Below are positions 11,235 through 36,800 of a stretch of DNA of 46,262 bases, piece by piece. Source of the DNA: Craspedostauros australis (lineage: Eukaryota). The position numbers and the translations under genes were made by a program. Numbering within the stretch: the first letter of the stretch is position 1; the number at the start of each line of letters is the position of its first letter. Below the pieces are notes generated by a model. The model did no database searches and was not told where the DNA came from. It saw nothing but the letters and a program-made list of their open reading frames with translations. The stretch lies in assembly GCA_030167865.1 (NCBI GenBank), contig JALAGF010006020.1, forward strand, positions 1 through 46,262. Reading direction: 5' to 3'.

Positions 11235-14200
11235 TCAACATCCGTCCCCGAAGTAGAGAGATCCGCCGGATCCGAACTCGCGGCCTTCGTACTCGACGTA
11301 AGAGTCGTACGTGATCCGGACGCCTCGGCCCTCTCCGAGAATGCCGTCCCCGTAGGCATCTCGCAACCGCAGTCTCCAGCATTTGGACGAGTCGACCTTG
11401 GCGGAGTCTGTCCTGTCGGCGAAGTTGGGCAATGTGTTTTGGACCGAGAACAGTGGTTTGCCAACTTTCTTCTTGGTCTCGGGGTCCCATTGGACCAAGG
11501 AATACGATGTGTCGGACCCGTATTGATCGGTGAGGACTCGGATCTCGACCACCTTGTACAGGATGGGGCAGTACCCAATCTGGAGCGTCACTCCTTCTGG
11601 GTTGCTCTCGTCATCTTCCACTACCTTAGGAGTTGACTGCATCTCCTGTCCGTCTAACGACAGCTTGACCTTCTCGGTGATGACGTCAAGGTCGGTCTCA
11701 TCGAGAAATTGAAGATGGTAGCAGCGGGTCTTGGAGATGCAGTAGGCTGGATCAGAGATATCAACTCGGTCGTTGCCAGCCACCACACCTCCGGTCTTGC
11801 GGTCGATGAGCTTCCATTGAATGTCCACAGTCGAAGATGTTGGGACACTCGTTGGCAGCAATGATGGTGTGCCTGTTGGCAAGGCTGTTGGAGTCGATGT
11901 TGGAGACTTCGTTGGCAAGGCTGTTGGGGAGTTTGTGGGAAAGCCTGTTGGAGAGGCGGTCGGAAGATCCGTTGGGGAGTCCGTGGGCGAGTCCGTTGGA
12001 GAGGGGGTCGGAAGATCCGTTGGATACGGTGTGGGTGAGTCCGTGGGAAAGCCGGTTGGAGAGCTTGTCGGGGATCCCGTTGGAGGGCTGTTGGTTGGAG
12101 CCGCCGTTGGAGAGTTTGTTGGGGATCCTGTTGGAGGGCTGTTGGTTGGAGCCGACGTGGGAGAGTTCGTCGGGGATCCTGTTGGAGGGCTGTTGGTTGG
12201 AGTCGACGTGGGAGAATTTGTTGGGGATGCCGTTGGATCATCTGTCGAGTAGATTGTCGGGGATGCCGTTGGAGAGTTCGACGAGAGTGATGTTGGGACA
12301 GCCGAAGAGTAGCTTGTCGGAGCGACAGTTGGAGATGCCGATGGCAAGTTGGTTGGAGAATGTGTCGGAACTATTGTCGGAGCGACAGTTGGAGATGCTG
12401 ATGGCAAGCTGGTTGGAGCATGCGTGGGAGATCCCGTTGGAGATCCCGTTGGTGAGTTTGTGGGAGAGAGTGTTGGAGATTCTGTTGGTGAATTTGTGGG
12501 AGAGTTCGTAGGTTGCTCTGACGACATGAACGATGGAGGGTCCGATGACAGTCTCGATGGTGACGACGTTGGCGAGACCGAAGGTTGGTGTTCGTCATCA
12601 CTTTTTGATGGCTCTACAGAATTGACGGCAACGATGGTGTAAGGGCTGTCGACGAGCACCCTCCGGGCGCCCGCGCCTTGAGCGGACAGGGCTGGAAGGA
12701 GCGCCAGATGCTGACCTCCGGCCGTGAGGCAGTCTGCTTGGAGAACGACGTTCATGGCATCGGTGGCCTGAATGAGGCCGTGACCGAAGGAATCATCTCG
12801 GGTGAGATCATCTGCTCGGTATGCTGTTTCCTGGATGGTGTCCAACAGGAAGTCCCTGGATGCGTATGGGGCGAATGAGAGGAGTAGAGCCAGGATGCCC
12901 GAAACGAAGGGCGCGGACATGCTCGTGCCGGACCATGTTGCGTAAGCGTCCACAGTTTCGCCTGTGCCCTCGTCTATGATATGAGGGATCGTGCTGAGGA
13001 TGTCAACGCCTGTTTGACACATGGAGAAGGAGGAGCAGTGAGTGGGTGAGAGAGAGAGAGGATGCAATGTTTAGCATGAAAGTGGATGTAGAATAGGTGC
13101 AAGTCGATGTGGATGCGAATACTAATCTGGACGTACCTGGTGCAACAACGTTGACCTGATTGTTTCTGGTGGAGAAGACGGCCAAATCACCGTTGGAGTC
13201 GACGGCCCCGACTGAAATGACGGAGTCGTAGTTGGCAGGATAGTTGGGTACGTTGCCGTCCTCGGGCCTGCCGGTGTTGCCAGCCGAAGCTACGATGAGC
13301 ACGCCTTCCTTTTGCAGCTCATCGAAGTAGACATTTTCCTCTATGTCGAACTTGGTGCCTCCGAGGCTGAGGTGGATGATGTCGGCCTTGGCTTCGGATC
13401 GGCACAATCGAGCTGCGGCGACGAGGTCGCTTCCGAACAACGTCCTGTCCTGATCGAAGACCCGAACGATGTGGTAGTTGGCGTCGGGCGCGATGCCTTG
13501 CAGGATCTCCGACTTGGCCGACATCATTCCGGCGACGAAGGTTCCGTGGCCCACGAAATCGTAGTTCCACGGCGAGACGACCTGCGGATTGGAGGAGCCC
13601 GTCATCTTGGCTTCCTTGATGTCCGCGTGCTGATACGCTCCTGAATCGATGATGCAAACCGTGACACCGGAGCCCGTGGCGCCGTACATGTCGCGGATCG
13701 TTGGAAGCTGGACCTGGTCGGCTCCGGTGACCAAGTCGGATTCGGAGACGAGTCTGCGGTCAGCGGCGTCGTTGCCGTCCTTGACATCGTTGGAGCGTGA
13801 TGGGGGCTCGACCATCTTTAGGGAACCCGGAAGATGCTGCATCTCTCGCAGTGGGTCGTCCTGGATGGAGAGGCCGTTGACGCTGACGATCTTGTCTATG
13901 TCCTGGACGTGCACCAGTGCCGAGAATGCGTATAGATCGGCAACCGCCAGGGCGTGCAGGATGTGGATGGGTGCGACAGGGTGCATGGTGGTGATTTCAT
14001 CAAGTGCATCGTAGCACTCATCTGGCATCTGTGAGGTTCCATCGTCGCGGAGGACAGGCTCCGAGTCCTGCTGCGATTGCTGCTGTCCCTCCTGCTGTTG
14101 CTGAAGCCAATGTGGGTCGCAAATGATGACGAGGCGCATGAGAGCGTTGGCAGAGCCTCCGGTGGCAGCCTCACGCAAGCTGGCTTGGAGGATCTCATCG

Positions 14201-14694
14201 TCGGAAGGGTCCATGATGGTGTCCGAGTACGTTCCATCGTCATTCTGCTTGTGTCTCAGTGCGACAGATGGGATCGATGGCTTGGGAAGGAGAGTGTCAG
14301 TATCAGCATCAGTGTCAGCATCCAGTTCTCTGGCTGCTTGCAAACGCCCAGCTCCCGTCCTAAGCTCAGGTTCATCCCGAGTTTGTGTTTGAGCTGGCGT
14401 GGGCGATGACGCATTGCTCGCCCGTGGTGGCTGTCCCCGTCGGTGCCTCAGCCTGCGCCGAGAAGCCGATGGCAAGGATGATGAGGCATCATGAGGCTCA
14501 GTCGATGACGAAAGGTGGGATTCTGCTTGGAAGATGGAGGCGGCAGACGCATTGGCAACGCAGCACAGCAACATAGCGAGGGTGATCATGATGGTTGCTC
14601 TCGTTCGAAATGTCGGAAGACCAAGGGATGATGCTCTCCAATGCTCGTGCGCCGTACTTGTGGACGACGTCCTTCGCTTTGTCGTTGATGCCAT
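11235..14694 (-). CDS. Secreted subtilisin-like serine protease (S8), 2 exons (14694-13137, 13009-11235), ~1110 aa, with Pro/Thr/Ser stalk and C-terminal beta domain
   Basis: Catalytic motifs [18 protein letters not shown] and [11 protein letters not shown]. Removing the GT-AG intron 13136-13010 restores VVAPG|VDILST. Signal-like [16 protein letters not shown]. The start is uncertain: in-frame ATGs at 15195, 14694 and 14589. Confidence 0.92.
11840..12580 (-). repeat. Coding tandem repeats (PTxS/SPT) forming a mucin-like stalk
   Basis: Translation [11 protein letters not shown]...[10 protein letters not shown], including longer near-identical blocks such as [15 protein letters not shown]. Confidence 0.9.
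13010..13136 (-). other. Spliceosomal intron (127 nt, phase 1) of the subtilase gene
   Basis: Minus-strand donor G|gtacgt, acceptor aaacag|GC with an upstream pyrimidine-rich (CT)n tract. It joins two ORF-track fragments in frame. Confidence 0.92.
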
Positions 14695-17053
14695 TGCTGG
14701 ATTTGTGATGGTATTGCTGGATGTGCTCTGCAATGCGCTTTGCGATGTGCTCTGCAATACGCCTGATCTGTGTATTGTGGTCTCGCTGCGGACTGCCTCT
14801 GGTGCTCCGGGTTGCCGTTGTGGCGACTTTGGCGACTGCGATAGTTGTGAGGAGTGCTCGAGCAACGAGTGAAGCGGTTGTGATGGTTGTGATGATTGGG
14901 ATGATTGATTCAATGGAGATGATCGCGATGTCATGATGGTGGCTTTGCTGGACCTTCGATCGACCCACTTGTTCTTGTGCTGGCAAGTGATGGTTGGGGT
15001 GCACTGGGATTGATGCAGCTGGTGGCCAGAGTCGTCGTCACTGTCGTCGCTCGTACCTGCACGAGCACTCGTGTTCTTGCGCTTACTCGGATTTGGACCC
15101 CTGATTGTAGTATGTGGTTGCATTGGGGCTTGCGCGTCCGGCTTTAACGGCGCCTGTGGCTTCACAACCACGAGTATCGGTGTCTGTGTGGACATGATGC
15201 TCGATTGGCAAGGGCGACCTCGGGAGATGGCGTTGACACTGATCGTGAGGCCCAGAGGGAGAGAGAGACGCAAGGGAGGTGGTGATGATCTCCTTCGTCT
15301 CGGCGAGACTCGGAAAGAGCTGACCAGCCAGCGGTTCGTCTTCAATCGGTTCAAATTAGAGGTGGGAGCCTCTCAGCCACACGCAGGAGGCGGTTCCAGA
15401 GGTAGTGCTGCTGCTGCTGGTAGTGCTGGTTGTGCTGGTTGTGCTTGTCTTGGCGCGGTATTCAAAGCTTCTCGCAGCCAACGGCGCGAAGTCCGTGCTC
15501 GGGTGGAACACGAACAAGCAGCGCCCCGCGAGCAAAAGTACCTGTGCTCTTCCTTCTTGGTCCTGCTGGTTTTGCTCGTGTCGTGGTGGTTTCTTGTCAC
15601 GGGAGCCGTTGCTGCTCCCTTCGGTGCGGCGTTTGTACCAATCGTTCGTCGTTGGTCGCTGACGAAATTGTCCCTGGGACGTAACGGCAAAATGTGTATC
15701 GCGGTCATTTCTCGTTGTCTTCCGTGTGTGTTGCTCTGTTTGAATTTACGAGGCGGTGCACAATGAGCACGACATCTTCCATGTGCCATGCGTCACGAAT
15801 GAACAGTGTGTCACGTCGGACAAGAAAAACACATAAATTTAGTCATGTCTACGCGCCAGCCAGACCAATGATAGTCAACACACCAACTCCACCGCTCCGA
15901 AGAAACATCTTCGGGCTACTTTGTTGTGCAGTCCACACGAACTCACGAACTCAGAAAGCCGCAAGGGCAAGCACGCACCACACCACTTCCTCCTTCAACA
16001 CCTCTGCCCCATCCACAACCATCACGATGATGAATGGCCCTGCCGAAGTTCCACGAGCACCGCGCACCGCTTCGTATTCGAGCACCACTCAACAAGGGAC
16101 CACCGTGTGTTCATCTATCGTCGGTATTGCCTCGGAGAGTGTCATGGATCGTAGTATATAATAGAATACCATACTCTACTGATATATCCTTGTAGAATAC
16201 ATCCCATCATGTTCCAAGAGCCGTAACATGTTGCATTCGCCAAGCCTATCATGGGAACATGTTTCTGAATCAGAGTACGACTCAAGAACGATGCCCTGCA
16301 AGTCTCCAGCACCTCCAACTTCATGTGTTGGGCTGGGCCATCTCTTGCACACCAAACCACCAGCTATGAGAGCTGCTATATTCCAAACGAGAATAGAGCG
16401 GACACCACGTCATTTGCTGCCGCCGGCGGGTGGTCGTCGGTTCTGGGTTCGGCCCATGGCCGATGTAAGAACCAAATCAAGCGAAACAGGAACAAAGGCG
16501 ATGTGGGATTGTCAATTCCACATGACCTCGGGAAGCTTCCGTGTCACACAGGAGCATGATGGAGTCGCGGAGTATAAATGATGGGTCTGCCGATCAATTG
16601 CTTCAGTTCCTTGGCTCCAGCGTTCCAATGCTGCTGCGTACTGGCAAGGCTGTCCATCATGCCTCGTGCTTGTTTACACACAACTACCCCAACCATGCTA
16701 CTCAGAGACCGTCCTCTTGCTTCACAAATGGGTACTCAGTGGTGTAGCGTCACCTACTTGTCCATCGACGCGTAGTCGACTCGTGTTTGTGCGATTGTCA
16801 GAATCGGCACACAGGGCTGACACTTGTTGTTGAAATTACAGGACACAATATAGAGTGTCCGTTTTGTACTATCAATGTTGTTGTGTTGATTCACGACCGT
16901 TTCATGTTGACGTTATAGTTGATCGAGACGTTAACTCAATTTGAGTTTGCAATAAATATATCTCATGTTACGTCCGTACGGCCATCATGTGAAACCCATA
17001 CAATCCGATGAGTCGTCCGTGGCCTCGACAGAGAACCGTGATGAGACAAGAGG

Positions 17054-18673: not shown

Positions 18674-21600
18674 ATGAAGTTCGCCTCAGCCGCGGCTACT
18701 GCCCTCTCCCTGGCATGCATGGGCACAACGTCCGCCTTCACCTTGCCGTCCCCATCCGCGGCCGTCGCCCAGAGCCGTCCTGCAGGACCGCTCTTCGCCA
18801 TCCAGAACCCTCCGGAGACGGAAGAGGCCACCGCCGACATGGCCAAGACCAACGGCCCCAGCAACAACATCTCCAACCCGGTCAACCCCTACGCGACCAC
18901 CCCCATGATCTCCTTGACGATCCAGGCCATCTTCAAGATGATCTTCTCCGGACAGATCGGAGTTCCGCTGCTCCTTCTCATCGTCCTCTCCCCCATCGTG
19001 AGCATCGTCCTCCCTCTCCTCAACCTCCTTGGGAACAACACCATCTCGCTCGTTTACAACATCATTCGGACCAGCTTGCAGGAGGTCGTTGGCGCACCGA
19101 TGCAGTATGCCACCTACCCAAAACACCTCGAGGTAAGCAATTCGTGTGTTGCAGTTGCGCATTCCAGCTCAGAGCTGAAAACTTGCATAATGTCTTCGTG
19201 CGAGAATGTTCGTACCGCCCTGCCTCGAGAACAATGCAGCAGGACCCGCACCAGCAGCACCAACTCGCGATCTCCCTTCGACTTGCCGCGTCCATCACTT
19301 TTTGGACGCTGATTGTTTATGCAAAACGCATATGACGTAAATGCCATGTATGGCAGCGTCTTCAATGCTCTGCGCAATGCCACACACGATTCTCACATGG
19401 TTGCCCAACAACTGCGCGCCGTGCTATGCACACCATGCCGCACCACCGCGCTTTGCTCTACCGACAGTATCCGAATGTCCCTCTCGATGACATCATGAGA
19501 AAGATCGACGGCGTGCCACCGCTGAACTACTGGTTCAAGTTCTCCAAGATCCTTGGTGTTGTCGGAGCCGTCACTGACACAGCTGCTGGTCTCGAAGCAT
19601 CCGGAGTCAAGGATACCGATCCCAGCACCTACGACAACTACAACAAGCTCTTCACGGACAACGGCACCGCACCAAACTCAAAGTACCCCACTCCACCGTA
19701 CGTTCCTGATCATTGGGAGGAGGATGCCGAATTCGCTCGCCAGTTCCTCAACGGAGTCAACCCCGTCATGGTCGAGGTCGTCAGCGACGTCTCTGGCCAG
19801 CTCAGCAACGAGATCGTCAGCTTCTTCAAGACCACCAAGGTTGCCGGTGAGTCGGTCGACCTTGGTGCACTTGCCAAGGCCAACCGCCTCCTCTACGTCG
19901 ACTACGAGGGCCTTGACGCCCTCAACAAGCACCCGCACCAGGCGTACCCCCAGGCATACAACAACAAAAATTTCACTGACGACGAGACAGTTCTCAGCCG
20001 TGTCGGAAAGGAGCCACGTTACTTCGAGTCTCCGATCATCGTGCTCCAGCTCGACGAAAAGCGCGAGAAGCTTCAGGTCCTCGGTGTCCAGCTCGAGCGT
20101 ACGCCAGGCGCCCAGATCTACACCAGCGAGAACACCGAGGCAAACAAGTGGTTGTTCATCAAGACTGCAGTCGCGGCAGCTGATTCCCAATACCACGAGG
20201 TACGTACGCACATATACGAATGCACACATTCATGCACACACAAACGCACACATGTGTATCGTATAATACCTGCCGCAATCCGTGGTTGCGGTTTTCATCC
20301 TCGTACCGTATGCATTCGCTTTGCTACATTCGACGCACACTGTGCACATTGTATAAACTGCGTGTCTTTGCGCAATGATATGATTCTCCTGCGTCGATCT
20401 CACCAGGCGATTCTCTCGTTCTCTGATTCCACCTTTCACATCATTTCGCTTCCTTGCGCCCGCACCTGCACCTGCACCCACTCATGATTGCAATCCGCAG
20501 TGGGTCACGCATCTTGGCAAGACCCATTACACCATGGAGCCACACATCGTCGCCATCCACAACACCCTCCGAAAGACCAACCACAAGATTTACCCATTCC
20601 TCGCACCGATGTGCCGTGACACCCTCCTCCTCAACTGGGCCGCCCGTCTCACACTGGCCGAATTTGGGCCAGACAGTTTCGGTGACAAGATGACTTCCGT
20701 CGGAGTCGGCCAATACATGCAGCTTATCAAGAAGTACTGGGAGGACTACGACTTCTTCAAGTCCGGTGCCGCTGACGAGGAATTGGAGGGGCGCGGCTTC
20801 TCTCCTGATGTGGAATTCCCAGGTTACCGTTACCGCACCGATTCGCTGAAGCTGTGGGACATCTACGGCACCTTCGCCACCGACTACGTGAACGAGGTGT
20901 ACGCGAGCGATGCCGAGGTCGCTGCCGACGCCGACCTTCAGAGCTGGGCCACCGAGACCTCCGATCCAACCCGCGGGGCCGTGAAGGGATTCCCAACAAA
21001 ATTCACCGACAAGAAGATCCTCGTCAAGACCCTCCAGACCTTGTTCTGGATTTGCAGCGGTTTCCACGCTGCCGTGAACTTCTCCCAGTACGACGTAAGT
21101 ATTGCACGGTGTTCCGTTCTTTGCCAGTGCTCTGCTTCGTCGGCGACGGCGATGTCAACAACAGAGATGGCAGAAATGACGCATGATAGAGGCAGCAGCA
21201 GTAGCAGCAGCAACAAGTGCAAGGAAGCGACAAGCATGTTGCAGCTCGATCATCAATCTCACCTTCTTTTCTCCTTTCTCTCCCTTTTGTAATACCATTT
21301 GCATCCTCTTACTTTGTGTCTGGCTATTGGCCGATTCACGCTGCGTTGCCTTTGCTCACACTCACGCTCACACCCACTCCCGTATCGAACAAAAAAAAAC
21401 AGTTCTACGCTTACCAGGCCAACAAGCCACTCGGTTTCCGCGCACCAGTCAGCGACTGGCCGGACGCCACCGGCGACAAGGACTGGATCTTCGAGAATGG
21501 CATGCCGCACATGGCGGAGGCCAAGCAAGGCATCGCTACTGCCCGCGTCCTCACTTACCAATCCCACCAGACCATCGACCGCCTGGATGAGTTCTTCGGC

Positions 21601-21753: not shown

Positions 21754-22968
21754 GCGTGGCCGTAATCCACAACCCCCCACGGTGCGTGGCATGCCGCTGC
21801 ACTGTGTTGCATAGCGATACAAGTATTACATAATATTATACATGGCATGCAACGGGATGACGACAGCAGGCAAGTATTATACATCACATTACATTCTATT
21901 ATATAGAATAGTATAAGAAGAGAGGTCGTATCCCACACTCCACTGTCATACTGTGACCGTCCCGTAGCTGTGATTTGCGTCTGTGGCACGCATGTGACGA
22001 ACTGTAGCAAGCCGTGCCTAGCATCAGATACGCGTCTCATGGCATACCAACCAGCACCAAAGCATTCGGCAACATCAGATAACGACCGCTCGATTCGTAT
22101 CTTTCCGATCTCGTCGCGATGTGGGTGCACATCTGACAAGCGAGAATGCGGTGTGCACAAGTTTTGGCGCCAACCCGATTCTGTTCTTCTCATGACAGGC
22201 AAGGTTGTGGTGATGTGTCAGGTCGGCTGATTCGAAGGTGGTATCTTTGCGAGAATGACCCTGTTGTGCCTCGATGGGACATGGTGCGTGGGTTCGGGTA
22301 TCTTTGGTGGACCGACATGTGACATGACTGCGACGATGACAAGGGAGGAAAAGGTCTCAAACCAAGACCGGAATGTGTTCTGTTTCGTCCTTTGTGGTAC
22401 ACAATGGCTGGTTTGCGTTGGTGGCGACTGTCGATGAGACACATCGGTATTGTGTTTAGTATGGTGACTCGTGACACAGAAGCAAGATCAATGGAGTTGG
22501 AGAGAGGTGACAAAAGAAGCCCATCGCAGGGGGTATTGATGGCCTGGACGAGCGCTCTGTGGTAACAGGTGGCTGCGAGATGCGGGAGACGTGCGATGAT
22601 GGCAGAGAGCAGTCGTACGCACCAGTAGTAGTACCAGCCATGAGTACGAGTACAAACCACACTTCGCTGGTATGTCTGATGTGTGGGCATGCAAACATGC
22701 GAACATGAGAGGAAGGAGCCTCTTCTCTGTGTCTCAGAACTTGGCAACAACCACTCACCAATGATGTTGATTGCGCACAAATCTTGGAAATCAGAACAGC
22801 CGCACCAAACTATCCATCCAACTCGCATCGATTGCACCTAGTGTGGGTAGGTTGTCCGAATACGAATACGGATACGAATAGGAAGAGGTAACGAAGTGGA
22901 GACAGACAGTCCAGACAAGAGAGCGAGGAAGACGAGAGAGAGAGAGAGAGAGCTAGTGATTGACGAAG

Positions 22969-25900
22969 ATGAGCACCCCAGTCACCCCGAAGAGCAGCAA
23001 GCAGAGCATCGGCAGAGGCTCGTTCAAGTCACCGAGGACGCCGAAGACACCGAAGACACCAAAGACACCACGCAACGCAGGTGGCTTCCGGGCTCCCAAG
23101 ACGCCCAAGACTCCGAAGACCCCAAAGACGCCAGGGGGTTCCCATTTCAAGGTCCCCGATCACTGGGAAAAGCAGTCGGCCTTGGTCTTCCACAAGCGCG
23201 ATGACAACGTGAACAATCCAGACATCTCGGGCACCAAGGACTGCAAGCGCAAAGGCGTGTGGACCGGCGAGTACAACGTCAAGTCCCCGTCGGAGCTCTG
23301 GGTATTCCCGTACGGTCAGGAACCCATCGAGATCCACCACTCCAAGTACGAGGCCTTCGGCGTATGGGGCTACAAGCCTGGCGTCACGGAACAGGACTGC
23401 ACGACTCCCAAGCACTTCTGGTTCTACCCGCCCAAGGCCAGGGTGCCGTCCTTCTTCCAGGCCCTGGGAATATGGACCTTCCCCTACGTCAAGCCGGAGA
23501 CGGCGCACATCGCACCGGACTCGGCGGGCTTCGTGGACGTCGGTCTCGAGTCGGTTAAGAGGAAGAAGCTCGACGTGGGCGGCCAATGGAAGCTGCTCTA
23601 CCAGAAGGACGGCCTTCCGGTCGTCACGAAGAAGAAGCTAAACCTCAAGATCCGGACGTGGAAGAATGAGATCATCCCGCTCGACGACTGCCGCACGACC
23701 GACAGCATCGACGCCATCAAGAAGCGCGTTCAGGATTTGCGTCCGGATCTGCCCAAGACCACCCAGAACATGTTCCACGACGGCGAGTTCCTTGAGAGCG
23801 CCGCCACCGTGCATGACTACGGCATCCCCAACAACGGCATCATCGACCTGGAGGGTATGCAGGTTTACGTGCAGCTGCCTGACAATGGCAAGCGCCTGCT
23901 GCTGGCCGTCGACGGGCCTGCGACCACCATCCAGCGCGTCAAGGAGATGGTCGAGAAGCAGGAGAAGATCCCACCATCGCAGCAGAAGCTCTCCTTCGGC
24001 GGTCAGTCTCTCGAGCAGTCACCCAAAACCAGGACGCTCAAGGATTACAAGATCAAGCATCTGTCGACGTTGGATCTGGACCTCGACGACCCAAAAATGA
24101 CGCTCTACGCCCAGGAGTATGGCACCGAGCACCAGCTGCCAATCGCTGGCGTCAAGCCCGCGCAGACGGTCGATGAGACCAAGGCGCAGATCGAGCAGCA
24201 GCACGGCATCCCCAAGCGCGACCAGCGTCTCGTGTACAAGGGCAAACCTCTCAAGGACAAGGACAAGACGCTCAAAGACTACAAAATCCCCAACGGCGCG
24301 GTGCTCGATCTGCTGCCGATGAAGGTCACCGTCGTCACGCCCGATGGCAAGAAGAAGATCGACCTGGTCGGCGTCAAGCCAAACTCCACCATCCAGCAAA
24401 TCAAGCAGATGGTCAATGACAAGGTCGCCTCCATCCCAGTCGATGAGCAGCGTCTCGAGTACCAGGGCAAGCCCCTCGACAAGGACAGGAAGACGTTGGA
24501 CGACTACGACATTCCCAACGGTGCCACCCTCGACTTGTCTCCGATGCAGCTCTTCGTCAAGAACGAACAAACGGGCAAGACCTTCCCCGTGCACGATCCG
24601 TCGCTCTCCCCCCGCACGACGGTGCAGGAGCTGAAGAACATCATCCAGGATCAGGAGAACATCCCGCCGAAGGAACAAAAGCTGATCGCGCCGAACGGAA
24701 AGGAGATGAAGGACGACAAGAAACCGCTGTCAAAGTACGGGGTTGCCAACGGCGACACCCTCAACTTGTCCAACGCAGGCATGGAAATCACCGTCGTCGA
24801 CTGGATGAGGAACAGATACGAACTCAAAGATCTGCAACCGACAACGACCATCGACGAAGTTAAAGAGATGGTGGAAACCATGAAGCCCACGTCGAAGGGC
24901 ACCAAGCCTCACAAGCCGGTCCCCAAGCAGCACCAGCGATTGTTGTACCAAGGCAAGGAGCTGTCCGATAACAGCAAGTCGCTTGAGGCATACAAAATTC
25001 CAAACAAGGCGCAGCTGAATTTGGAGGGCATGGAAGTCGTGGTCCGTGATGCCGACAGCAACACGAAGACGCCCATCTCCAACCTCCACCCAAGCGATAC
25101 CGTGGACGACATCAAGTCGCAGGTCGAGAAGAAGCTGGGCACGCCGAAGGACCAGCAGCGCCTCATCCACAGGGGCAAGGAGCTCAAGGACAATTCATCG
25201 ACGTTGCAAGACAACCGGATCAAGCACGGTGATAAGTTGGATCTGGAGGGAATGAAGATCCACGTGCGGACGCCAACAGGAAAGAAGCTGACATTGAATG
25301 TCAAGCCAACCGATACTGTCGATGACGTCAAGGGGCAAATCGAAGGCCAGACCAAGACGCCGAAGAAAGAGCAGCGCCTGCTGTTCAAGAAGAAGGAGCT
25401 GGACGATGGCCGGCCGACGTTGGATGAATGCAACATCAAGCACGGAGACACGTTGAACTTGGAGGGCACGCAGATCCATGTCAAGACTCCAAGCGGCGAG
25501 ACCTTGACGCTTGACGTCAGACCGAGCGATACGATCGACAGTGTGAAGGAGCAAATCAAGGATCAAACCAAGACCCCGAAGAAGGAGCAGAGGCTGCTAT
25601 TCAAGGGCAAGGAATTGAGCAACGGTCGACCAACCTTGAACGACAGCAACATCAAGCACGGGGATACGCTGGACTTGGAGGGCATGCAGATCCACGTCAA
25701 GACTCCAAGCGGTAAGAACTTGACGTTGGATGTTAAGCCAACTGATACGATCGATAGCGTGAAGGATCAGGTGGAGGGCAGAACCAAGACTCCGAAGGAT
25801 GAGCAGCGTCTCATCTACAAAAAGAAGGAACTCAACGACGACGCAGCAACGCTGGAGGACAACAAGATTCCCCATGGTGCCACGCTCAATTTGGAGGGCA

Positions 25901-27060
25901 TGCAGATCCACGTCACTCCGGCCAGCGGCAAGGGCAAGCCCATGACGCTGGACGTCAAGCCCTCCAACACTGTCGACGATGTCAAGAACAAGCTCGAGAA
26001 AGAGCACGGCATCCCGAAGGACGACCAGCGTCTCAACTTCAAGGGCAAGTCCTTGGACGATGATAGTCCCACAACAAAGACGTTGGATGACCACGGCATC
26101 GAGCATGGTTCGACGTTGGACCTGCAGGGAATGCAGATCGTCGTGAAGGACTGGAAGAGCAACAAGCTGACGCTGGATGTCTCCCCGACCGACACCATCG
26201 CTGACATCAAGCAACAGGTGTCAAAGAAGAAGAAAATCCCGACCGACGTCCAGTTCCTCTCGTACGATCGCAAGAGCCTCAGCGACGACGACAAGACGTT
26301 GTCCGACTACAAGATCAAGCACATGTCGGTGCTTGATTTGGAACGCATGAAGATCTACGTCAAGACGTGGAACGGGAAGACATTCCCGCTGGATGTGGAA
26401 CCGAAGAACGCGATCTCCGAGATCAAGGGCAAGATCGAGGCCAAGGAGAAGATCTCGCCAGACAATCAGTACCTCATCCATGGAGGCAAGCTGCTGGAGG
26501 ACGAGCCGACCTTGAAGGATTACAACATCCGGCACAAGGCGACGGTGAACCTGGAGCGAATGAAGGTCTACGTCAGAACCTGGAACGGCAAGACGTTCAC
26601 CCTCGAGGTGAATCCGGACGACACGATATCCGACATCAAGGGCATGGTGGCCACGAAGGAGAGCATTCACCCCAAGGAGCAGCTGCTGCGGTTCAACGAC
26701 GAGGTGCTGAAGGACGAACCGACGTTGCGGGACTACGGTATCAAGTACAAATCCACTATCAACCTCGATCAGATGCCGAAGGAGGAGCCGGCGAAATCGC
26801 CAAAGGCCAGCAAGGCGCCAGTCGAAGCCGTCGAGGCCGAGGAGGAAGACTTTGAGGAAGTGCCGACCTTCCGCGTCCGCATGGACGATTGGCAGGATCC
26901 ATTCGCCTTCAGCCCGAAGACCAAGGCCAAGAAGGATGGAGTGCGCGCGAGGAAGCATTACAGCGGTTTGTACGACTTCTACGGAACCGCAACGAACACG
27001 CAGACCGCTCCATTCAAGCCGGTCCTGCAGGACGATGATTCTGGCGGCGATGCGAAGTAG
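22969..27060 (+). CDS. 1363-aa protein with 14 tandem divergent ubiquitin-like domains, N-terminal (TPK)n and Trp-rich repeats
   Basis: First ATG at 22969. Fourteen units of the form MQIxVKTxxGKxxTLxVxPxDTIxxxK...IPxxxQRLxxxGKxL...TLxDYxI...TLxL between ~23638 and 26772. None ends in LRGG. Confidence 0.95.
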   Translation: MSTPVTPKSSKQSIGRGSFKSPRTPKTPKTPKTPRNAGGFRAPKTPKTPKTPKTPGGSHFKVPDHWEKQSALVFHKRDDNVNNPDISGTKDCKRKGVWTGEYNVKSPSELWVFPYGQEPIEIHHSKYEAFGVWGYKPGVTEQDCTTPKHFWFYPPKARVPSFFQALGIWTFPYVKPETAHIAPDSAGFVDVGLESVKRKKLDVGGQWKLLYQKDGLPVVTKKKLNLKIRTWKNEIIPLDDCRTTDSIDAIKKRVQDLRPDLPKTTQNMFHDGEFLESAATVHDYGIPNNGIIDLEGMQVYVQLPDNGKRLLLAVDGPATTIQRVKEMVEKQEKIPPSQQKLSFGGQSLEQSPKTRTLKDYKIKHLSTLDLDLDDPKMTLYAQEYGTEHQLPIAGVKPAQTVDETKAQIEQQHGIPKRDQRLVYKGKPLKDKDKTLKDYKIPNGAVLDLLPMKVTVVTPDGKKKIDLVGVKPNSTIQQIKQMVNDKVASIPVDEQRLEYQGKPLDKDRKTLDDYDIPNGATLDLSPMQLFVKNEQTGKTFPVHDPSLSPRTTVQELKNIIQDQENIPPKEQKLIAPNGKEMKDDKKPLSKYGVANGDTLNLSNAGMEITVVDWMRNRYELKDLQPTTTIDEVKEMVETMKPTSKGTKPHKPVPKQHQRLLYQGKELSDNSKSLEAYKIPNKAQLNLEGMEVVVRDADSNTKTPISNLHPSDTVDDIKSQVEKKLGTPKDQQRLIHRGKELKDNSSTLQDNRIKHGDKLDLEGMKIHVRTPTGKKLTLNVKPTDTVDDVKGQIEGQTKTPKKEQRLLFKKKELDDGRPTLDECNIKHGDTLNLEGTQIHVKTPSGETLTLDVRPSDTIDSVKEQIKDQTKTPKKEQRLLFKGKELSNGRPTLNDSNIKHGDTLDLEGMQIHVKTPSGKNLTLDVKPTDTIDSVKDQVEGRTKTPKDEQRLIYKKKELNDDAATLEDNKIPHGATLNLEGMQIHVTPASGKGKPMTLDVKPSNTVDDVKNKLEKEHGIPKDDQRLNFKGKSLDDDSPTTKTLDDHGIEHGSTLDLQGMQIVVKDWKSNKLTLDVSPTDTIADIKQQVSKKKKIPTDVQFLSYDRKSLSDDDKTLSDYKIKHMSVLDLERMKIYVKTWNGKTFPLDVEPKNAISEIKGKIEAKEKISPDNQYLIHGGKLLEDEPTLKDYNIRHKATVNLERMKVYVRTWNGKTFTLEVNPDDTISDIKGMVATKESIHPKEQLLRFNDEVLKDEPTLRDYGIKYKSTINLDQMPKEEPAKSPKASKAPVEAVEAEEEDFEEVPTFRVRMDDWQDPFAFSPKTKAKKDGVRARKHYSGLYDFYGTATNTQTAPFKPVLQDDDSGGDAK

Positions 27061-27459
27061 GGCAGGAGCCGTGCAATTCCAGGACGAGGGCTTCCGTCGT
27101 GCTTCGATTTTGTCGATTGCGATCAAATGGAAGCACTGTGTGTGGTACTACGGACGAGTATGGTACATTGCGACAAATTGGAATAGAGTAAACTAATCTC
27201 TATTATCAGACTCCCCGTACTACGGACATGGAGTAGAGCAATGCAAAAATGGGGGCATGCATACGGAGTATGTATTCTTGTGATGTGTGGCACGATCCAC
27301 TCGGGCGCGGGTGCAGCAGCGCAAATGTTGCGCTGCCCGCATTCCAATCCGTTCAAAAAGAGATCATTGTTTGTGCAATTGCACAGCCCGACCGCCGTTG
27401 TCGCCAAGATCACCGGCGACAAAGGAAAGCGAAGGAGAGCAAAACCACTTGCCGTTCGC

Positions 27460-29046
27460 TCACAGCAGCATGGCGCTGTCAACCTTGATTTGATCCGGCA
27501 GCTTCAGGCTATTTCTCCCAAAGATCCGGCGCAGCAACCTCCCCGTCGGACTCGTGGTGAGGGCATCCTCCGTCAGCCTCTGGTGATGCTCCTCCACATC
27601 CGGCACCGACTTGCGGATGCGCCGCTCAATCTCGTGAAAGTTGGGACGCAGGTCGGGATCTTCCTGCCAGCAGTCCTCCAGGAGTGTGCGGATGCAGAAG
27701 GGAAGATCGGGATGGCACCTGGGACGCACACGCAGCTTGGCGACGGCCTCGACCAATGTGGACTGGGTCTTGTGCTTGCCGTACGGCTTCTCACCGTGGC
27801 AGATCTCCCACAGCACGAGAGCGAAGGTGTAGACGTCGGACGCGTACGACACGCCTTCCGTGCCCGTCAAGACCTCTGGCGCCATGTACCGCATCGTGCC
27901 GCATACGTTGGGGGCGGTCTGATCAATGTCCTGCTGCGACGCCGCGTTGTCCTCATCGTCTTCCACGCCGCTCGATCGGTTGGGGATGACGATGTTACGC
28001 TTCTCTCGCACGCGGCGCACCATGCCAAAATCAAAGAGCTTGACGGTGTTCGTGTGCTTCTCGTAGCCGATGTTGGAAGGCTTGAGATCGCCAAAGATGA
28101 ACTGCTTGGAGTGCAGGTAGTCCATGGCCCGGGCGATGCCGAGCGCATCCTGCAGGTAGATCTCCAAGTTGAGCGGATTCCTGGGATTGTAGCTGCGATG
28201 GACGGCGCGGCTTCCCGGCGATGCCCTGTGCTTGAGGGCCGCCAACCGTGATGAAAGATCCAGCTTCTTCTTGTGAAGCTTCGGCGAGACGGGCAGGTCC
28301 TCATGATTCTGCTGCTTGAGCTTGGCCTCCAGAGTTTGCTTCTGCAGAATCTCCATGACGAGGAACAGCGTGCCGTGTCCGTAATACTTGACGATATTGG
28401 GATGCCTGAGCTTGGAGAGGATGGCGCCCTCCATGGCAAGATCGACGACCGCGACGGTGGCGTGAGTGGGGCACTTGGCTGTTTTCTGGCTGTTGACGCA
28501 CTTGACTGCGTACTCCTGATCGCGTTGCTGTTGTTGTTGCTGTTGTTGTTGCTGTTGTTGTTGCTGGGTGGAAGAGCTGCAGGACTTGGTGCGATCGTGG
28601 GCCGAGACTGCGCTGATGGTGCTGGCACAGATGCTGCCTGGCGAGGAGAGGCTCGCGCAGGTGGTGGAGCTGGCTGTGGTCACCGTATCGCCATCGCAGG
28701 GGCAGGCGTTCATCTCGTGGGTCAGGAAACCGCTGCTGCTGCTGCTACTGCTGGTGTGGTTGCTGCTGGCGTCTAAGCCATCACCAAAGACGTCCGGATT
28801 GGAGATCCTGGCTCTGTAAACATGCCCGTAAGCACCGCTTCCTAGCAGCTCGAGGATGTCGAGATCATTGAGGTCGATGCGCAGCTTTGGCGACAGCCTG
28901 CGCATGGAAGGCTGGCGGCTGCCCACATCCTCCGTCAGACTGACGAAGGATCCGTAGTAGCGCTTGTGGAAGGAACCGACCTCCTCGCGTGCTTTCTCCT
29001 GAGCTGATGCACAGAATCGGTTGTTGCTGGGGTCCTCGAGCTTCAT
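27460..29046 (-). CDS. Protein kinase, TKL-like, non-RD, 528 aa (paralog A)
   Basis: LGSGAYGHVY, YAVK, alphaC Glu (DLAMEG), FGDLKPSN, DFG, GTMRYMAPE, SDVYTF, CW..DPDLRPNF. First ATG is 29046 (the ORF-track start at 29091 is TTG). Confidence 0.93.
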   Translation of the reverse strand: MKLEDPSNNRFCASAQEKAREEVGSFHKRYYGSFVSLTEDVGSRQPSMRRLSPKLRIDLNDLDILELLGSGAYGHVYRARISNPDVFGDGLDASSNHTSSSSSSSGFLTHEMNACPCDGDTVTTASSTTCASLSSPGSICASTISAVSAHDRTKSCSSSTQQQQQQQQQQQQQQRDQEYAVKCVNSQKTAKCPTHATVAVVDLAMEGAILSKLRHPNIVKYYGHGTLFLVMEILQKQTLEAKLKQQNHEDLPVSPKLHKKKLDLSSRLAALKHRASPGSRAVHRSYNPRNPLNLEIYLQDALGIARAMDYLHSKQFIFGDLKPSNIGYEKHTNTVKLFDFGMVRRVREKRNIVIPNRSSGVEDDEDNAASQQDIDQTAPNVCGTMRYMAPEVLTGTEGVSYASDVYTFALVLWEICHGEKPYGKHKTQSTLVEAVAKLRVRPRCHPDLPFCIRTLLEDCWQEDPDLRPNFHEIERRIRKSVPDVEEHHQRLTEDALTTSPTGRLLRRIFGRNSLKLPDQIKVDSAMLL

Positions 29047-30729: not shown

Positions 30730-32175
30730 TCACGACAGCATGACGCTGTCCACCTTGATCTGATCCGACGAGTCGCGGCCAAAGATGCGGCGCAGCAGCT
30801 TCCCCGGCGACGGCTTCGGACTCGATTTTTCCCAGTCATGACATTCCTCCACCGACTTGCGAATGCGGCGTTCGATCTCGACGAAGTTGGGACGCAGATC
30901 CGGATCGTGCTGCCAGCAATCCTGAAGCAGCGTGCGGATGCAGAACGGCAGATCGGAGTGGCACTTGGGGCGCACCTGGTCCTTCTCGACGGCCTGGCGC
31001 AACATCGCCGGCGTCCGGTACTGCCCGAAAGGCTTCTCGCCGTGGCAGATCTCCCACAGAACGAGCGCGAAAGTGTAGACATCGGAGGCGTACGACACGC
31101 CCTGGCTTCCTGTCATCACCTCGGGCGCCATGTACCGCATCGTGCCGCAGATGTTGAGAGATTCGGTCTTCTCGAGGTGCTGCGGCGTGGATTGCGTGTT
31201 GGTCTGCTTCGCTGGAGCGACCTTATCGGGCACAACGACGTTGCGCTTTTGTTGGACCCTGCGCGCCATGCCGAAATCAAAGAGCTTGACGGCACCCGTG
31301 TGCTGGTCGTATCCGATATTGGAGGGCTTGAGATCGCCAAAGACGAATTGCTTGGAATGCAGATAGTCCATGGCCTGGGCGATGCCGAGCGCATCCTGTT
31401 TGTAGAGTTGGAGATTGAGGGGCTTCCTGTGATTCTGATTTCTACCAAGGAGGCCGCCGCCGCCGATGCCGATCGTCTTTGATTTGTTCTTGGTTTTGCT
31501 CTTGTTGTTGGCCTTTGGTTTGATGGAGGATATCAACGACGCACCGGGACGGTCGTCTCTGTTTGCATTCCCGCTGTGTGAGTATGGGAGCTGCGATTGG
31601 TCCTGCTGCTTGATCCTATCCTCCAGGGTTTGCTTTTGCAGGATTTCCATGATGAGGAACAGCGTGCCATGCCCGTAGTACTTGACGATGTTGGGGTGCC
31701 TGAGCTTGGAGAGGATGGCGCCTTCCATGGCGAGATCGACAGTGGCGACGGTTGCATGGTCCGGTGATTTTGCCGTCTGCTGCGAGTTGATGCACTTGAC
31801 GGCGTACTCTTTGTGTGAGTCTTTGCTGTTATTAGCGTTTGTATTGTCGCCGTTGCCATCAACGATTCGAGCACTGAGGACGTCCGGGTTCGATATCCTG
31901 GCCCTGTAGACACTGCCGTACGCACCGCTGCCCAAACGCTCGATGGCATCAAGGTCGTTGAGATCGATGCGCATCTTGGAGGAGAGACGGCAGACCGACG
32001 GCTGACGGCTGCCTAGATCTCTGGTCGTTGTGACGAAGGAACCGTAGTAGCGCCTATTGAATGTGCCCACCTCCTTGCGCGCCTGCGTCTGAGCCGATGC
32101 ACAGAAGCGGTTGTATGCTGTGGGATCCTCCAGCTTGGCCCCTCTCGATCTGGTTTGCGCATATTGGTTGGTCAT
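30730..32175 (-). CDS. Protein kinase, TKL-like, non-RD, 481 aa (paralog B)
   Basis: Same motifs as paralog A (LGSGAYGSVY, YAVK, FGDLKPSN, DFG, APE) and shared N- and C-terminal extensions. Confidence 0.94.
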   Translation of the reverse strand: MTNQYAQTRSRGAKLEDPTAYNRFCASAQTQARKEVGTFNRRYYGSFVTTTRDLGSRQPSVCRLSSKMRIDLNDLDAIERLGSGAYGSVYRARISNPDVLSARIVDGNGDNTNANNSKDSHKEYAVKCINSQQTAKSPDHATVATVDLAMEGAILSKLRHPNIVKYYGHGTLFLIMEILQKQTLEDRIKQQDQSQLPYSHSGNANRDDRPGASLISSIKPKANNKSKTKNKSKTIGIGGGGLLGRNQNHRKPLNLQLYKQDALGIAQAMDYLHSKQFVFGDLKPSNIGYDQHTGAVKLFDFGMARRVQQKRNVVVPDKVAPAKQTNTQSTPQHLEKTESLNICGTMRYMAPEVMTGSQGVSYASDVYTFALVLWEICHGEKPFGQYRTPAMLRQAVEKDQVRPKCHSDLPFCIRTLLQDCWQHDPDLRPNFVEIERRIRKSVEECHDWEKSSPKPSPGKLLRRIFGRDSSDQIKVDSVMLS

Positions 32176-33867: not shown

Positions 33868-36800
33868 ATGGCAACGGGCGGAGACGAGGATGCTGCCGTG
33901 GCAAAGTACAAGGCCATGCGCCGATCATCGGACGCGTACGACAACATGAACAGCGCATCCATGGGCTTCCTGGGTGCTTCCAACACCAGGCAGCAGAAGG
34001 AGAAGCAAAACAAGAAGGCTGCCAACAAGTGGAGGCCCAGCAAGGGCAGGGAGGAACGTCCCAGTGATTGGCTGGGATCTCCTTCCGCGAAGAAGAGGCC
34101 TAGCTACAGGATCAAGGCGGTCATCGCTGCTCCAACTCTCGATGATAGCAACAGTGACAGCGACAGTAACAACGACAATGGCAACGGCAACGACAATGGC
34201 GATGACAATGGCGATGACAATGGCAATGATGCTGACAGTAATAGCAGTGATGGCAACCCAACCAAAGATAGGAAGGCCAACAGCAACAGCGGCAGCAATA
34301 TCGGCAGCAACAATAACAGGAACAACGGCAGCAACGGCAGCTCAACTTCGCGATATGGCTCCGCTCGTCAATCAAAACCCAAGTCCACTGCCAAGCCCAA
34401 TTCGTTGTCGGCATCGCCCAGGCCCACACGATGGCTGGGAGGTAGTGGCGGTGGAGAGACCATGACGCCAGGTCGCAAGTCATATCGCATCAAGAACGCC
34501 TCGAAGAACAGGCCCACAATCCCCAACTTGGATGACACGTCTGCGCCAGCAACGACAACAGCAACAACCAACCTGCCGTCTGCATCGTCATCATCCAACA
34601 ACAGCAGAAGAAGGGCATCATGGCAACCGCAACCGCAACAACCACCAGCAACAACCACCACATTGGATGCCCTGCTCTCTCCCGCCATGATGCCACACTC
34701 ACAGCGAAAGCTAACACCCTCCAACCATTCCAGGGCGAGTTTATCGACAGCTGGCAGCGTCTCCAACAGGGCCAGACGCACACCGCCATTGCCACCACCG
34801 CCACCGGTTCATGCGCCCGCCCGAACATCCATCACCACACCTGTGGCACCGCCCAAACGAGTCATCGGTCAGAGGAGGCAGAGCGAGAGCAACATCAGCA
34901 ACTCCAGCAATCACAGCGCGCTCGGTTCCTCATGGTCGTCCTCGATCATGGCATCGCCCATTCACAACCATGCGAAGCGGGCATCCATCGCAACCTCCTC
35001 ACCCACCACCTCGCAATCTCCAAGGCGGACCCACAGTCTGCAAATTGAAGCCAAGCGCAAGGAGGCCATCCGCTCCAAGCTTCTGCAGCAGCCAGACGCC
35101 AAGGTCACCCTCTCGTCGACCGTCAAGAAAAAGGAAAAGATGAACAGAACCAAATTCGTCGCTGCGTACGCTGCCTTCGAAGACAAGCCGAATCCCTTGT
35201 CCTCCAGCAGCCACCATCGCCATCATTCCGTGCCAATCCAGAGCTCGCTGCCATCGGCATTCGCCCACCTTGCTCCCATCACCAACCTCAAATCCTCCAT
35301 GCCGACAGGCAGCGCGCATTCGGACAGGACGCCGCCTCCACCTCAAATCCCATCGCCGCGCATGCCACCACGTCAACGACCGTCGCCCTCCGACCACGAC
35401 GCGCCCGTGACGCCTGTTCCCAGACCAAAGAACACGGTGGGCAGGAACGCGAAACAGCAGTCCTACCTCAAGGGCGCCCCATCCCCGCACCGCATCATCT
35501 CCCCACGACCGGGTGCGCCGAGATCCTTCTACATACCGGCCAACTTCCAGGAGCTCCGCAAGAGGCTGCGGCAGCGTAAATCAAACGAAGCAGAGCTGTC
35601 GCAACTCACAGACATCATCGACAACCTCCGCAAGGTCCCCGACCTCGCGGCCATGATGTCCCTGTCGCATCATTCCCTGTCCTCCATCACCGAACCATCC
35701 AAATCGCGCGAGCAGGCATCCGAGATCCTAGAGATCATCCGCAAGCTGCGGCACGTCGAGCTCAACCCACCCAAGAAACGTCGCTCTTCTTCTGTCAAGC
35801 GCGTCACCAGGACCATCAGCGACTCCACCTTGGACACTGACGACGATGACGATGATGACATCTCCATGACGGTCCTCAAATCGCTCGAGTCTGGTACCGT
35901 CGACAGATCGTCTCGCAGTTCCAACAGAAACAACGACAACAACAACAACACCTCCGACGACAGCGCCGACAACGATGGTGGCGAGGCCCTGCTTTCCGAC
36001 GGAACATCCGGAAATCTCCAAACGCACGTCAAGGAACTGGCTGGTATCGTCGGCAATCTGCGCAAGGTCGGGGCGCTCGAATCCATGACGGACACAGAGC
36101 TGGGGCAGATGCAGAATATCGTCGATCAGCTCGATTCCGTTCAACAGCGGCTGGACGACCGTCTCTACGAGGCCAAGCAGCTCTCCAAGGTCTCCACCAA
36201 GCTACACAGCATCAAAACCTCCAAGTCACCCGCCATCGATGAGATCATCGCCGAGGCGCTGCGCAAGCTCAAGCGCATTCGCCCCAAGCTCTGCGATCAG
36301 GATGAGGACGACACCATGAAGTGCATCAAGATGCTGCGGAAGCTCCAGGCGGCCATGAACAAGCGCGAAGAGGAAGAATTGGCAATGCTCATTGGACAGC
36401 TTCCAGCCTACACGGCAGGTGGAGGTGACGACGATGATGACGACGATGACAATGACAATGAGGTTGATGAATTCCATGGCGACAGCCATGACGACAATGG
36501 GCCTTCCTCAAATGATGCAGCCGGCACGGGAGGTTCCAAGCTGCGCAGATCGGATGTTCGTGAATTGGCACATGTCCTGGCCGAACTCAAGATGATGGGA
36601 CAGGCACCACCCAACACTTTCTATCACGGTCGCGTGGACAGCAACCTCAGCAACGACAACAGCGCTGCTGGTGGAAACGAGGGTGGCCGTGTGGGCGGAA
36701 GCACGTTGAACACGAAGCATTCTGACTTTTTGACCAACGCCATCCGCCGTCTCAAGCGCATTCAGATGACCAAGCGGCAGGCGAAGGAGACTGCCAACGT

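Follow-up and report, generated by a model that had tools for sequence, protein, structure and literature searches.

The familiar role of ubiquitin is that of a signal, which is released from precursors by cleavage and then joined to other proteins. The polyubiquitin precursors UBI4, UBB and UBC consist of near-identical units of 76 residues joined head to tail, each with the LRLRGG tail on which release by deubiquitinases (DUBs) and conjugation depend, and only one or a few residues follow the last unit. Here we describe a gene of Craspedostauros australis whose product shares several features with these precursors and with Met1-linked ubiquitin chains. The gene lies on the + strand at 22969..27060 of contig JALAGF010006020.1 (assembly GCA_030167865.1), which was analysed from position 1 to 46,262 of the forward strand; this whole stretch of 46,262 nucleotides is called the window, and all coordinates refer to it. 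As in the precursors, ubiquitin-like (Ubl) units are arranged head to tail, ubiquitin chains are the best sequence and fold matches, and Met starts nearly every unit. In contrast to the precursors, the units are 16–71% identical to one another and about 71–73 residues long, they lack LRLRGG, so that neither DUB release nor conjugation is expected, and they stand between a head of 223 residues and a tail of 95. The predicted arrangement of successive units also differs from that in linear ubiquitin chains, with template modelling (TM) scores of 0.28–0.40. Of the features that define a polyubiquitin precursor, the protein has only the fold. The evidence is best explained by a genuine gene, intact and under purifying selection, whose product is one uncleaved polypeptide of 154 kDa. 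The best reading of that product is a known fold put to a new structural purpose and joined to an undescribed Trp-rich partner domain.

The ubiquitin-unit array and its junctions

The coding sequence is a single exon, open from the ATG at 22969 to the stop codon at 27058–27060 (1363 codons, 4.1 kb), with an in-frame stop just upstream of the ATG. The translated product of 1363 residues has a computed mass of 153.8 kDa and a pI of 8.9. Pfam family PF00240, the ubiquitin family, matched it in 14 stretches with a whole-protein E of 9.5e-200 (647 bits against a cut-off of 25.4), and families of the ubiquitin fold were the only ones above the Pfam cut-offs. By the unit boundaries, which were set from PF00240, a unit alignment and a junction analysis, the array of 14 tail-less units covers residues 224–1268, or 23638..26772 (+). 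Units are 70–83 residues long, and their pairwise identity averages 39%. At the DNA level a repeat was detectable only for units 8–10, where Tandem Repeats Finder (TRF) reported a period of 216 bp, 3.2 copies and 72% matches at 25219–25915.

The absence of the tail is sharply defined. When the protein was aligned by HMMER with solved polyubiquitin, a five-residue gap fell precisely at the tail (tlnl.....egmqihv against tlhlvlrlrggmqifv). At 11 of the 13 junctions the units abut without any extra residue, while the remaining two carry four and two respectively, and the residues before the next Met read LEG, LER, LLP or LSP. Neither RGG nor GGM occurs anywhere in the 1363-residue protein. Unit 14 closes with INLDQ, after which come another 95 residues, leaving no exposed C-terminal Gly-Gly. 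Because LRLRGG is missing, release of units by DUBs and their activation by E1 should be impossible; from the sequence and the textbook requirements of these enzymes it follows that the units are predicted to be neither released nor conjugated. At the position equivalent to Lys48 of ubiquitin, Lys is present in 11 of the 14 units (units 3–13). The column equivalent to Ile44 reads, from unit 1 to unit 14, F, S, V, E, I, L, I, L, L, I, N, S, I and R.

A preliminary description, made from the letters of the window, had proposed 14 divergent head-to-tail units without di-glycine and with minimal linkers, and these claims are borne out by the PF00240 stretches, the 39% mean identity, the gap at the tail and the 11 junctions with zero extra residues. 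Its count of 11 units with Lys at position 48 agrees with ours, as does its statement that position 44 varies, though F and R were left out of its list of residues there. The absence of the tail, taken with the textbook requirements of DUBs and E1, likewise supports its proposal that the protein is neither processed nor conjugated. The coordinates it gave for the array were identical to those found here; as an extent for the gene they fell short, since the frame runs 223 residues further upstream and 95 further downstream, and both extensions are conserved and family-specific.

The individual units, all on the + strand and placed by the unit alignment, are as follows. Unit 1 (residues 226–296, 23644..23856) is the most divergent and ends in DLEG, and unit 2 (residues 297–376, 23857..24096) is followed by the four-residue linker DDPK; the junction alignment was also used for these two units and for unit 5. 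Unit 3 (residues 377–450, 24097..24318) and unit 4 (residues 451–525, 24319..24543) precede unit 5 (residues 526–604, 24544..24780), which has the two-residue linker. A ten-residue insertion follows the helix of unit 6 (residues 605–687, 24781..25029), and unit 7 (residues 688–761) lies at 25030..25251. The 216-bp DNA repeat takes in unit 8 (residues 762–833, 25252..25467), unit 9 (residues 834–905, 25468..25683), whose first residue is Thr and not Met, and unit 10 (residues 906–977, 25684..25899); these three, with unit 11 (residues 978–1054, 25900..26130), make up the four-unit structural model described below. Unit 12 (residues 1055–1126, 26131..26346) ends in DLER. Unit 13 (residues 1127–1197, 26347..26559), with 71 residues, is the reference for ubiquitin numbering, and unit 14 (residues 1198–1268, 26560..26772) closes the array.

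The units are under constraint. Among units 8, 9 and 10, which with units 13 and 14 are the youngest paralogues of the array, the ratio of nonsynonymous to synonymous substitution rates (dN/dS) was 0.08, 0.14 and 0.18, and between units 13 and 14 it was 0.33, at dS of 1.1–2.4. G+C content at third codon positions of 22969–27057 was 0.82, the highest among ten window open reading frames (ORFs) compared, the others having 0.59–0.78; strong codon bias may be the cause. A run of GA dinucleotides lies immediately 5' of the start codon, at 22935–22955, and is perhaps part of the 5' untranslated region or promoter. At the other end, a 607-base contig of the public run X1 is identical to 26615–27213 (0 differences), beyond which it runs on into 8 A. 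The genome sequence at that point is CCCCGTAC and so differs from the 8 A. The RNA type of run X1 is a guess, no run recorded as RNA being listed for the locus, and this single contig hints weakly at a transcript polyadenylated 153 bases past the stop, with 27061..27213 (+) as the likely 3' untranslated region up to the poly(A)-like end.

No hydrophobic segment of the kind found in a signal peptide or membrane span occurs in the whole protein, the maximum Kyte–Doolittle 19-residue mean being 0.99. For this reason the protein is expected to be neither secreted nor membrane-spanning, and a cytoplasmic or nuclear location is suggested. The plastid ubiquitin of SELMA (PMC5487736), considered as a parallel, was set aside in view of the missing signal peptide and hydrophobic segment.

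Conservation, relatives and flanking regions

A search with the whole protein gave 29 matches. Among the resulting 30 proteins, the query included, 20 have 6–15 tail-less units with essentially no linkers, set between a head of about 100–320 residues and a tail of about 30–300 residues, and in the relatives the junctions are of zero length at nearly all positions. Nine other matches differ, with linkers of about five residues, other end domains (a kinase in some) or weak two-unit matches. The relatives with a named source come from Cylindrotheca fusiformis (39% identity, 92% coverage), Pseudo-nitzschia multistriata and, from a later search, Nitzschia inconspicua. The database names of the relatives are generic ('ubiquitin', 'ubiquitin C', 'ubiquitin-like domain-containing'), and would mislead automated counts of diatom ubiquitin genes. 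In full-text literature outside subscription journals we found neither this family nor any long array of tail-less ubiquitin units described, and passages of a survey of the beta-grasp fold (PMC1949818) likewise gave no such description.

For conservation, 197 units from 18 family proteins were aligned and numbered by unit 13, which is in the same register as the ubiquitin rows of the HMMER alignment. The core is kept: Met1 is present in 165 of 166 units, Lys27 in 174 of 197 and Gln41 in 188 of 197, and strong conservation was also seen at Ile3, Val5, Leu15, Val17, Pro19, Thr22, Ile23, Ile30, Ile36, Pro37, Leu43, Phe45, Leu50, Thr55, Leu56, Ile61, Leu67 and Leu69. The recognition patch of ubiquitin consists of Leu8, Ile44, His68 and Val70. 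In the family, position 8 is Pro in 106, Trp in 42 and Leu in 20 of 195 units; position 44, at 0.78 bits, ranks with the least conserved columns (T40, L29, S22, I19, R14, F12); position 68 is Asp in 84 and Asn in 26 of 192; and position 70 is Glu in 88, Asp in 34 and Gln in 17, together 139 of 166. Lys48 is retained in 89 of 197 units only, so its retention in the Craspedostauros protein is not a family feature. Three residues are conserved in a family-specific way, namely His63 (143 of 196), Gly64 (116) and Asp65 (123). In ubiquitin the loop 63–65 adjoins Met1, so that within an array His63-Gly64-Asp65 would stand beside the junction. At 179 junctions in the 18 proteins the last residue of a unit is Pro in 113 and Gly in 35, and the next residue is Met in 152; GG before Met was found at only two junctions, there without the spacer. 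In sum, the core is kept, the recognition patch is not ubiquitin-like, and the junction residues are kept (Met1, His63-Gly64-Asp65 and Glu70-Pro/Gly71).

Comparison of the units one by one with those of 13 relatives showed that they are not collinear, the closest match to a unit often being its neighbour in the same protein. In the absence of a collinear pattern, no positional identity is claimed for single units. The lack of collinearity and the close paralogues within proteins fit interchangeable blocks that have been gained and lost over time.

Units 8–11 were folded by AlphaFold2 from the in-register alignment A3 of 14 four-unit segments. The model contains four beta-grasp domains, each with the order beta-beta-alpha-beta-beta-beta, and has a mean predicted local distance difference test score (pLDDT) of 88.9 and a predicted TM score (pTM) of 0.66. 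Junction blocks scored 90–94 in pLDDT, and a single non-strand residue separates the strand at 67–71 from that at 73–78. With the flexible five-residue tail deleted, the final strand of each unit is predicted to pass with hardly a break into the opening strand of its neighbour, and the model predicts a fixed junction geometry. Foldseek placed the predicted model among ubiquitin chains with a probability of 1.00, the best match being linear tetra-ubiquitin at 45–46% identity.

On the N-terminal side of the array are two distinct regions. Residues 1–59 (22969..23145, +) form a basic low-complexity N-terminus of TPK and SPR repeats with a pI of 12 and no acidic residue; TRF found periods of 9 and 18 bp within it, at 23026–23129, and N-termini rich in S/TPxK are similarly found in relatives. 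Residues 60–223 (23146..23637, +) form a Trp-rich N-domain that closes with the motif DVGGxWKLLY and is family-specific in alignment A1; residues 60–220 match the A1 profile. The AlphaFold2 model of this domain is all-beta (pLDDT 67, pTM 0.61). No Pfam match was obtained even at E 10, Foldseek against the PDB gave none at E<=0.001 (all had E>1), the best match in a wide VIA search had a Z of 2.8, and the ESM Atlas gave no usable match. The Trp-rich domain is an undescribed module with no fold match, and it also occurs in tandem arrays in other proteins. A sequence profile run against the PDB gave weak matches to the C-terminal SH3 domain of Crk (E 0.04–0.9) over A1 profile positions 114–147. 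The most conserved part of the domain, FLxxG...DVGGxWKLLY, is at 23500–23637 (residues ~178–223), where AlphaFold2 was unsure (pLDDT 44–50). A stretch resembling an SH3 barrel may be present at 23500–23637, which we regard as a lead and not as a finding.

The C-terminal tail, residues 1269–1363 (26773..27057, +), is acidic and then basic (alignment A4). It contains, at ~26860–26982, the conserved peptide P-x-[YF]-x-V-x4-[WY]-Q-x-[PA]-F-x-[YF]-x-P-K-x-K-x-K-[KR]-x-G-V-R-A-[RK]-K-x-Y. Two types of tail occur in the family, and the Craspedostauros protein has type I (WQxPF ... GVRARK). All seven matches of a search with the type I tail profile were poly-Ubl proteins.

The A1 profile of the N-domain was also searched against 1.84 billion representative sequences, and 142 proteins were obtained at E<=0.001. 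These were assigned to classes by local hidden Markov models (HMMs). The N-domain was accompanied by 4–24 Ubl units in 49 proteins (at least 49 clusters), in which it was N-terminal in 46 and C-terminal in three, and by 1–3 units in a further seven. Two or more of the Trp-rich modules (W-modules) without Ubl units were found in 39 proteins, and a single W-module in 37, mostly short fragments; ten had no local HMM match. Pfam was run on 25 of the 142 and found PF00240 arrays in 17 (in proteins of up to 2934 residues), nothing in seven and bacterial-type domains in one.

The proteins with W-modules and no Ubl units start with a small conserved domain, and in six of the eight scored a segment rich in Glu, Arg and Lys precedes the W-modules (E+R+K 0.37–0.54). 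One protein, P0017, joins the two architectures. Its small N-domain is that of the Ubl-less W-proteins (45% identity, E 6e-21), its W-modules are also theirs (36% identity, E 3e-41 against P0054), and 12 Ubl units lie between the two. In P0017, then, a Ubl array occupies the place of the charged, probably helical spacer of related W-module proteins.

Two further sets of sequences came to light beside this family. P0031, P0033, P0041, P0045, P0050, P0054, P0056, P0060 and P0162 constitute a second undescribed family, with a small N-domain (VGxxYxGS...GMxLVED), often an E/R/K-rich segment, and 3–9 tandem Trp-rich modules; the W-module is the same as that in the poly-Ubl head, and the proteins have neither a Pfam match nor a hydrophobic segment. 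P0012, P0018 and P0020–P0027 are other arrays of ubiquitin units, with 8–19 or more units, linkers of two or about five residues and different ends, two of them having protein kinase domains. Non-canonical poly-Ubl proteins seem to be more widespread than the W-domain family alone.

A proposed spacer or tether, and the alternatives

The pattern of conserved core, altered patch and kept junction, the variable number of units, the dedicated end modules and the comparison of architectures lead us to favour the view that the array is a semi-rigid spacer or tether with a length set by the number of units, a function to which we give about an even chance. The protein would then consist of four working parts: the basic N-terminus with its TPK repeats, the beta domain rich in Trp, the 14 ubiquitin folds and the conserved peptide near the C-terminus. 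The array would hold the N-terminal binding module and the C-terminal peptide at a set distance, each end having a putative partner, and the number of units, 4–24 in relatives, would set the distance between the ends. The array would not act as a ubiquitin signal. A rigid rod was among the options of the preliminary description, and it gains support from the pLDDT of 88.9, the pTM of 0.66 and the near-continuous strands of the four-unit model, to which the range of unit numbers adds.

Several points weigh against the spacer. Superposed on solved linear tetra-ubiquitin, the four-unit model gave TM scores of 0.28–0.40 and root-mean-square deviations of 10–16 Å, values that show a difference and not rigidity. 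The alignment given to AlphaFold2 was shallow at 14 rows, the pTM of 0.66 is moderate, and the N-domain model, with a pLDDT of 67, is of moderate confidence. With dS above 1 and near saturation, the dN/dS values are rough, though clearly below 1. The resemblance to helices rich in Glu, Arg and Lys (ER/K) is an analogy of architectural position only. Finally, the conserved His63 and Asp65 and the acidic residues at 68 and 70 could equally mark a binding site that is repeated from unit to unit.

This last point is the substance of the alternative that survives best, in which the array is a ruler that binds a lattice, or a multivalent scaffold. Each unit would present the same surface, made up of His63-Gly64-Asp65, the acidic positions 68 and 70 and Pro or Trp at position 8, and with it the array might lie alongside a partner of periodic structure, for instance a filament of the cytoskeleton, or recruit one partner in many copies, much as nebulin lies along actin and beta-grasp DCX domains sit on microtubules. 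DCX domains as beta-grasp binders of microtubules figure in the reference list of the survey cited above (PMC1949818). The conservation of family-specific surface positions over 197 units, the variable unit number and the basic N-terminus of pI 12 are in keeping with such a role. However, the conserved positions, being close to the junction, could have a structural role and nothing more, the surface elsewhere varies strongly between units, as their mean identity of 39% indicates, and Pfam finds no cytoskeletal domain. We consider this alternative unlikely, if worth keeping in view.

Somewhat more speculative, and doubtful in our view, is a broader proposal in which diatoms use ubiquitin as structural material. 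Tail-less units would lock into a stiff rod of tunable length, and a metal or a partner bound at the cluster of His63, Asp65 and acidic 68–70 would stiffen each junction, compare calcium at the junctions of cadherins. As a cytoskeletal ruler or tether the rod might set a spacing in the cell, for example from the cytoskeleton to an organelle or to a silica-forming compartment, with the Trp-rich head and the C-terminal peptide serving as anchors.

The preliminary description had also suggested a genetically encoded polyubiquitin mimic or decoy, or a multivalent adaptor for the proteasome or for ubiquitin-binding domains (UBDs). That units are 45–48% identical to ubiquitin in Foldseek, that position 48 is Lys in 11 of the 14, and that their head-to-tail topology is that of Met1-linked chains would suit this suggestion, but it is not upheld by the family as a whole: over the 197 units Leu8, Ile44, His68 and Val70 have become Pro or Trp, a variable residue, Asp or Asn, and Glu or Asp, and Lys48 is present in fewer than half. 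Spacing shorter by five residues should also alter the inter-unit geometry that readers of linear chains recognize, the predicted four-unit model superposes poorly on linear tetra-ubiquitin, and no UBA, UIM or other domain of the ubiquitin system was found by Pfam. A mimic, decoy or adaptor is therefore judged improbable.

Ubiquitin is mechanically very stable when pulled from its N- to its C-terminus, and the array might be a titin-like, load-bearing elastic element whose beta-grasp units unfold and refold under tension between two anchors. All the architectural facts cited for the spacer apply here too, and the two readings differ only in the role of unfolding, which is invisible to sequence; nevertheless, no evidence points to anchoring in force-bearing structures, and we place little weight on an elastic element. 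A precursor that is cut at its junctions into single Ubl domains by a protease other than a DUB is very improbable: the conserved [ED]-[PG]|M junction offers a cleavage site in principle, but Pro is the last residue at 113 of 179 junctions, such strongly differing units would yield heterogeneous products, and the conservation of the domains at both termini speaks for a chain that functions uncut. Least credible of all is a decaying polyubiquitin pseudogene, or a chance open frame, which would account for the divergent units and lost tail, but the frame is open for 4.1 kb, structural residues are conserved over 197 units, head and tail are common to relatives, a poly(A)-like transcript end is weakly indicated, and dN/dS between paralogous units is 0.08–0.33, not the value near 1 that the preliminary description had associated with decay.

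Neighbouring genes and comparison with known systems

Downstream of the poly-Ubl gene are two protein kinase genes on the opposite strand, at 27460–29046 (-) and 30730–32175 (-), with matches to PF07714/PF00069 at E ~1e-39; in the first, a long stretch of poly-Gln occurs along with Ser-rich tracts. Upstream, a subtilase (Peptidase_S8) is spread over two overlapping ORFs, 11235–13022 (-) and 13003–15195 (-), probably as a result of an intron or a frame change, and a PT repeat lies in its downstream part. A lipoxygenase is likewise spread over 19426–20487 (+) and 20534–21292 (+), probably because of an intron. The open frame at 33868–39507 (+), of 1879 codons, had no Pfam match at E 1e-4; it was considered as a possible W-module protein, being of the same length as P0050, and was rejected when comparison showed the two to be unrelated. 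An assembly gap of 50 N at 518–567 is far from the poly-Ubl gene.

Several described proteins carry more than one ubiquitin fold in a single uncleaved chain, among them ISG15, FAT10, the C-terminus of OASL (two units) and the HUBL region of USP7 (five units), all of which were among the Foldseek matches. These hold two to five units, separated by linkers or accompanied by a catalytic domain, and in ISG15 and FAT10 the chain closes with a GG that can be conjugated, whereas the Craspedostauros protein has 14 units (4–24 across its family) with zero linker, and neither a GG nor an enzyme domain. The shuttle factors Rad23, Dsk2/ubiquilin and Ddi1 are similar in having a non-conjugated ubiquitin-like domain inside a larger protein. 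Theirs is a single domain with an intact proteasome-docking patch of the Ile44 type, accompanied by a UBA; here the patch is not conserved and there is no UBA.

Closer in function, if the array is a spacer or tether, would be the rods and spacers built from tandem domains, such as the Ig arrays of titin and filamin and bacterial rods of the SasG type, along with ER/K single alpha-helices. The likeness lies in many copies of a small stable fold, minimal linkers, varying copy number and distinct end modules. The difference is that the fold is here a beta-grasp, and that the stiffness of the array is a putative one. The family keeps the fold and core of ubiquitin but has lost the tail on which cleavage and conjugation depend; its recognition patch is altered, and 4–24 copies are set between dedicated end modules. 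If these arrays do serve as spacers or rulers, a protein that ranks with the most conserved in eukaryotes would have gained a new structural role, and the arrays would be a natural 'polyprotein' of a fold that biophysicists have used as a mechanical model.

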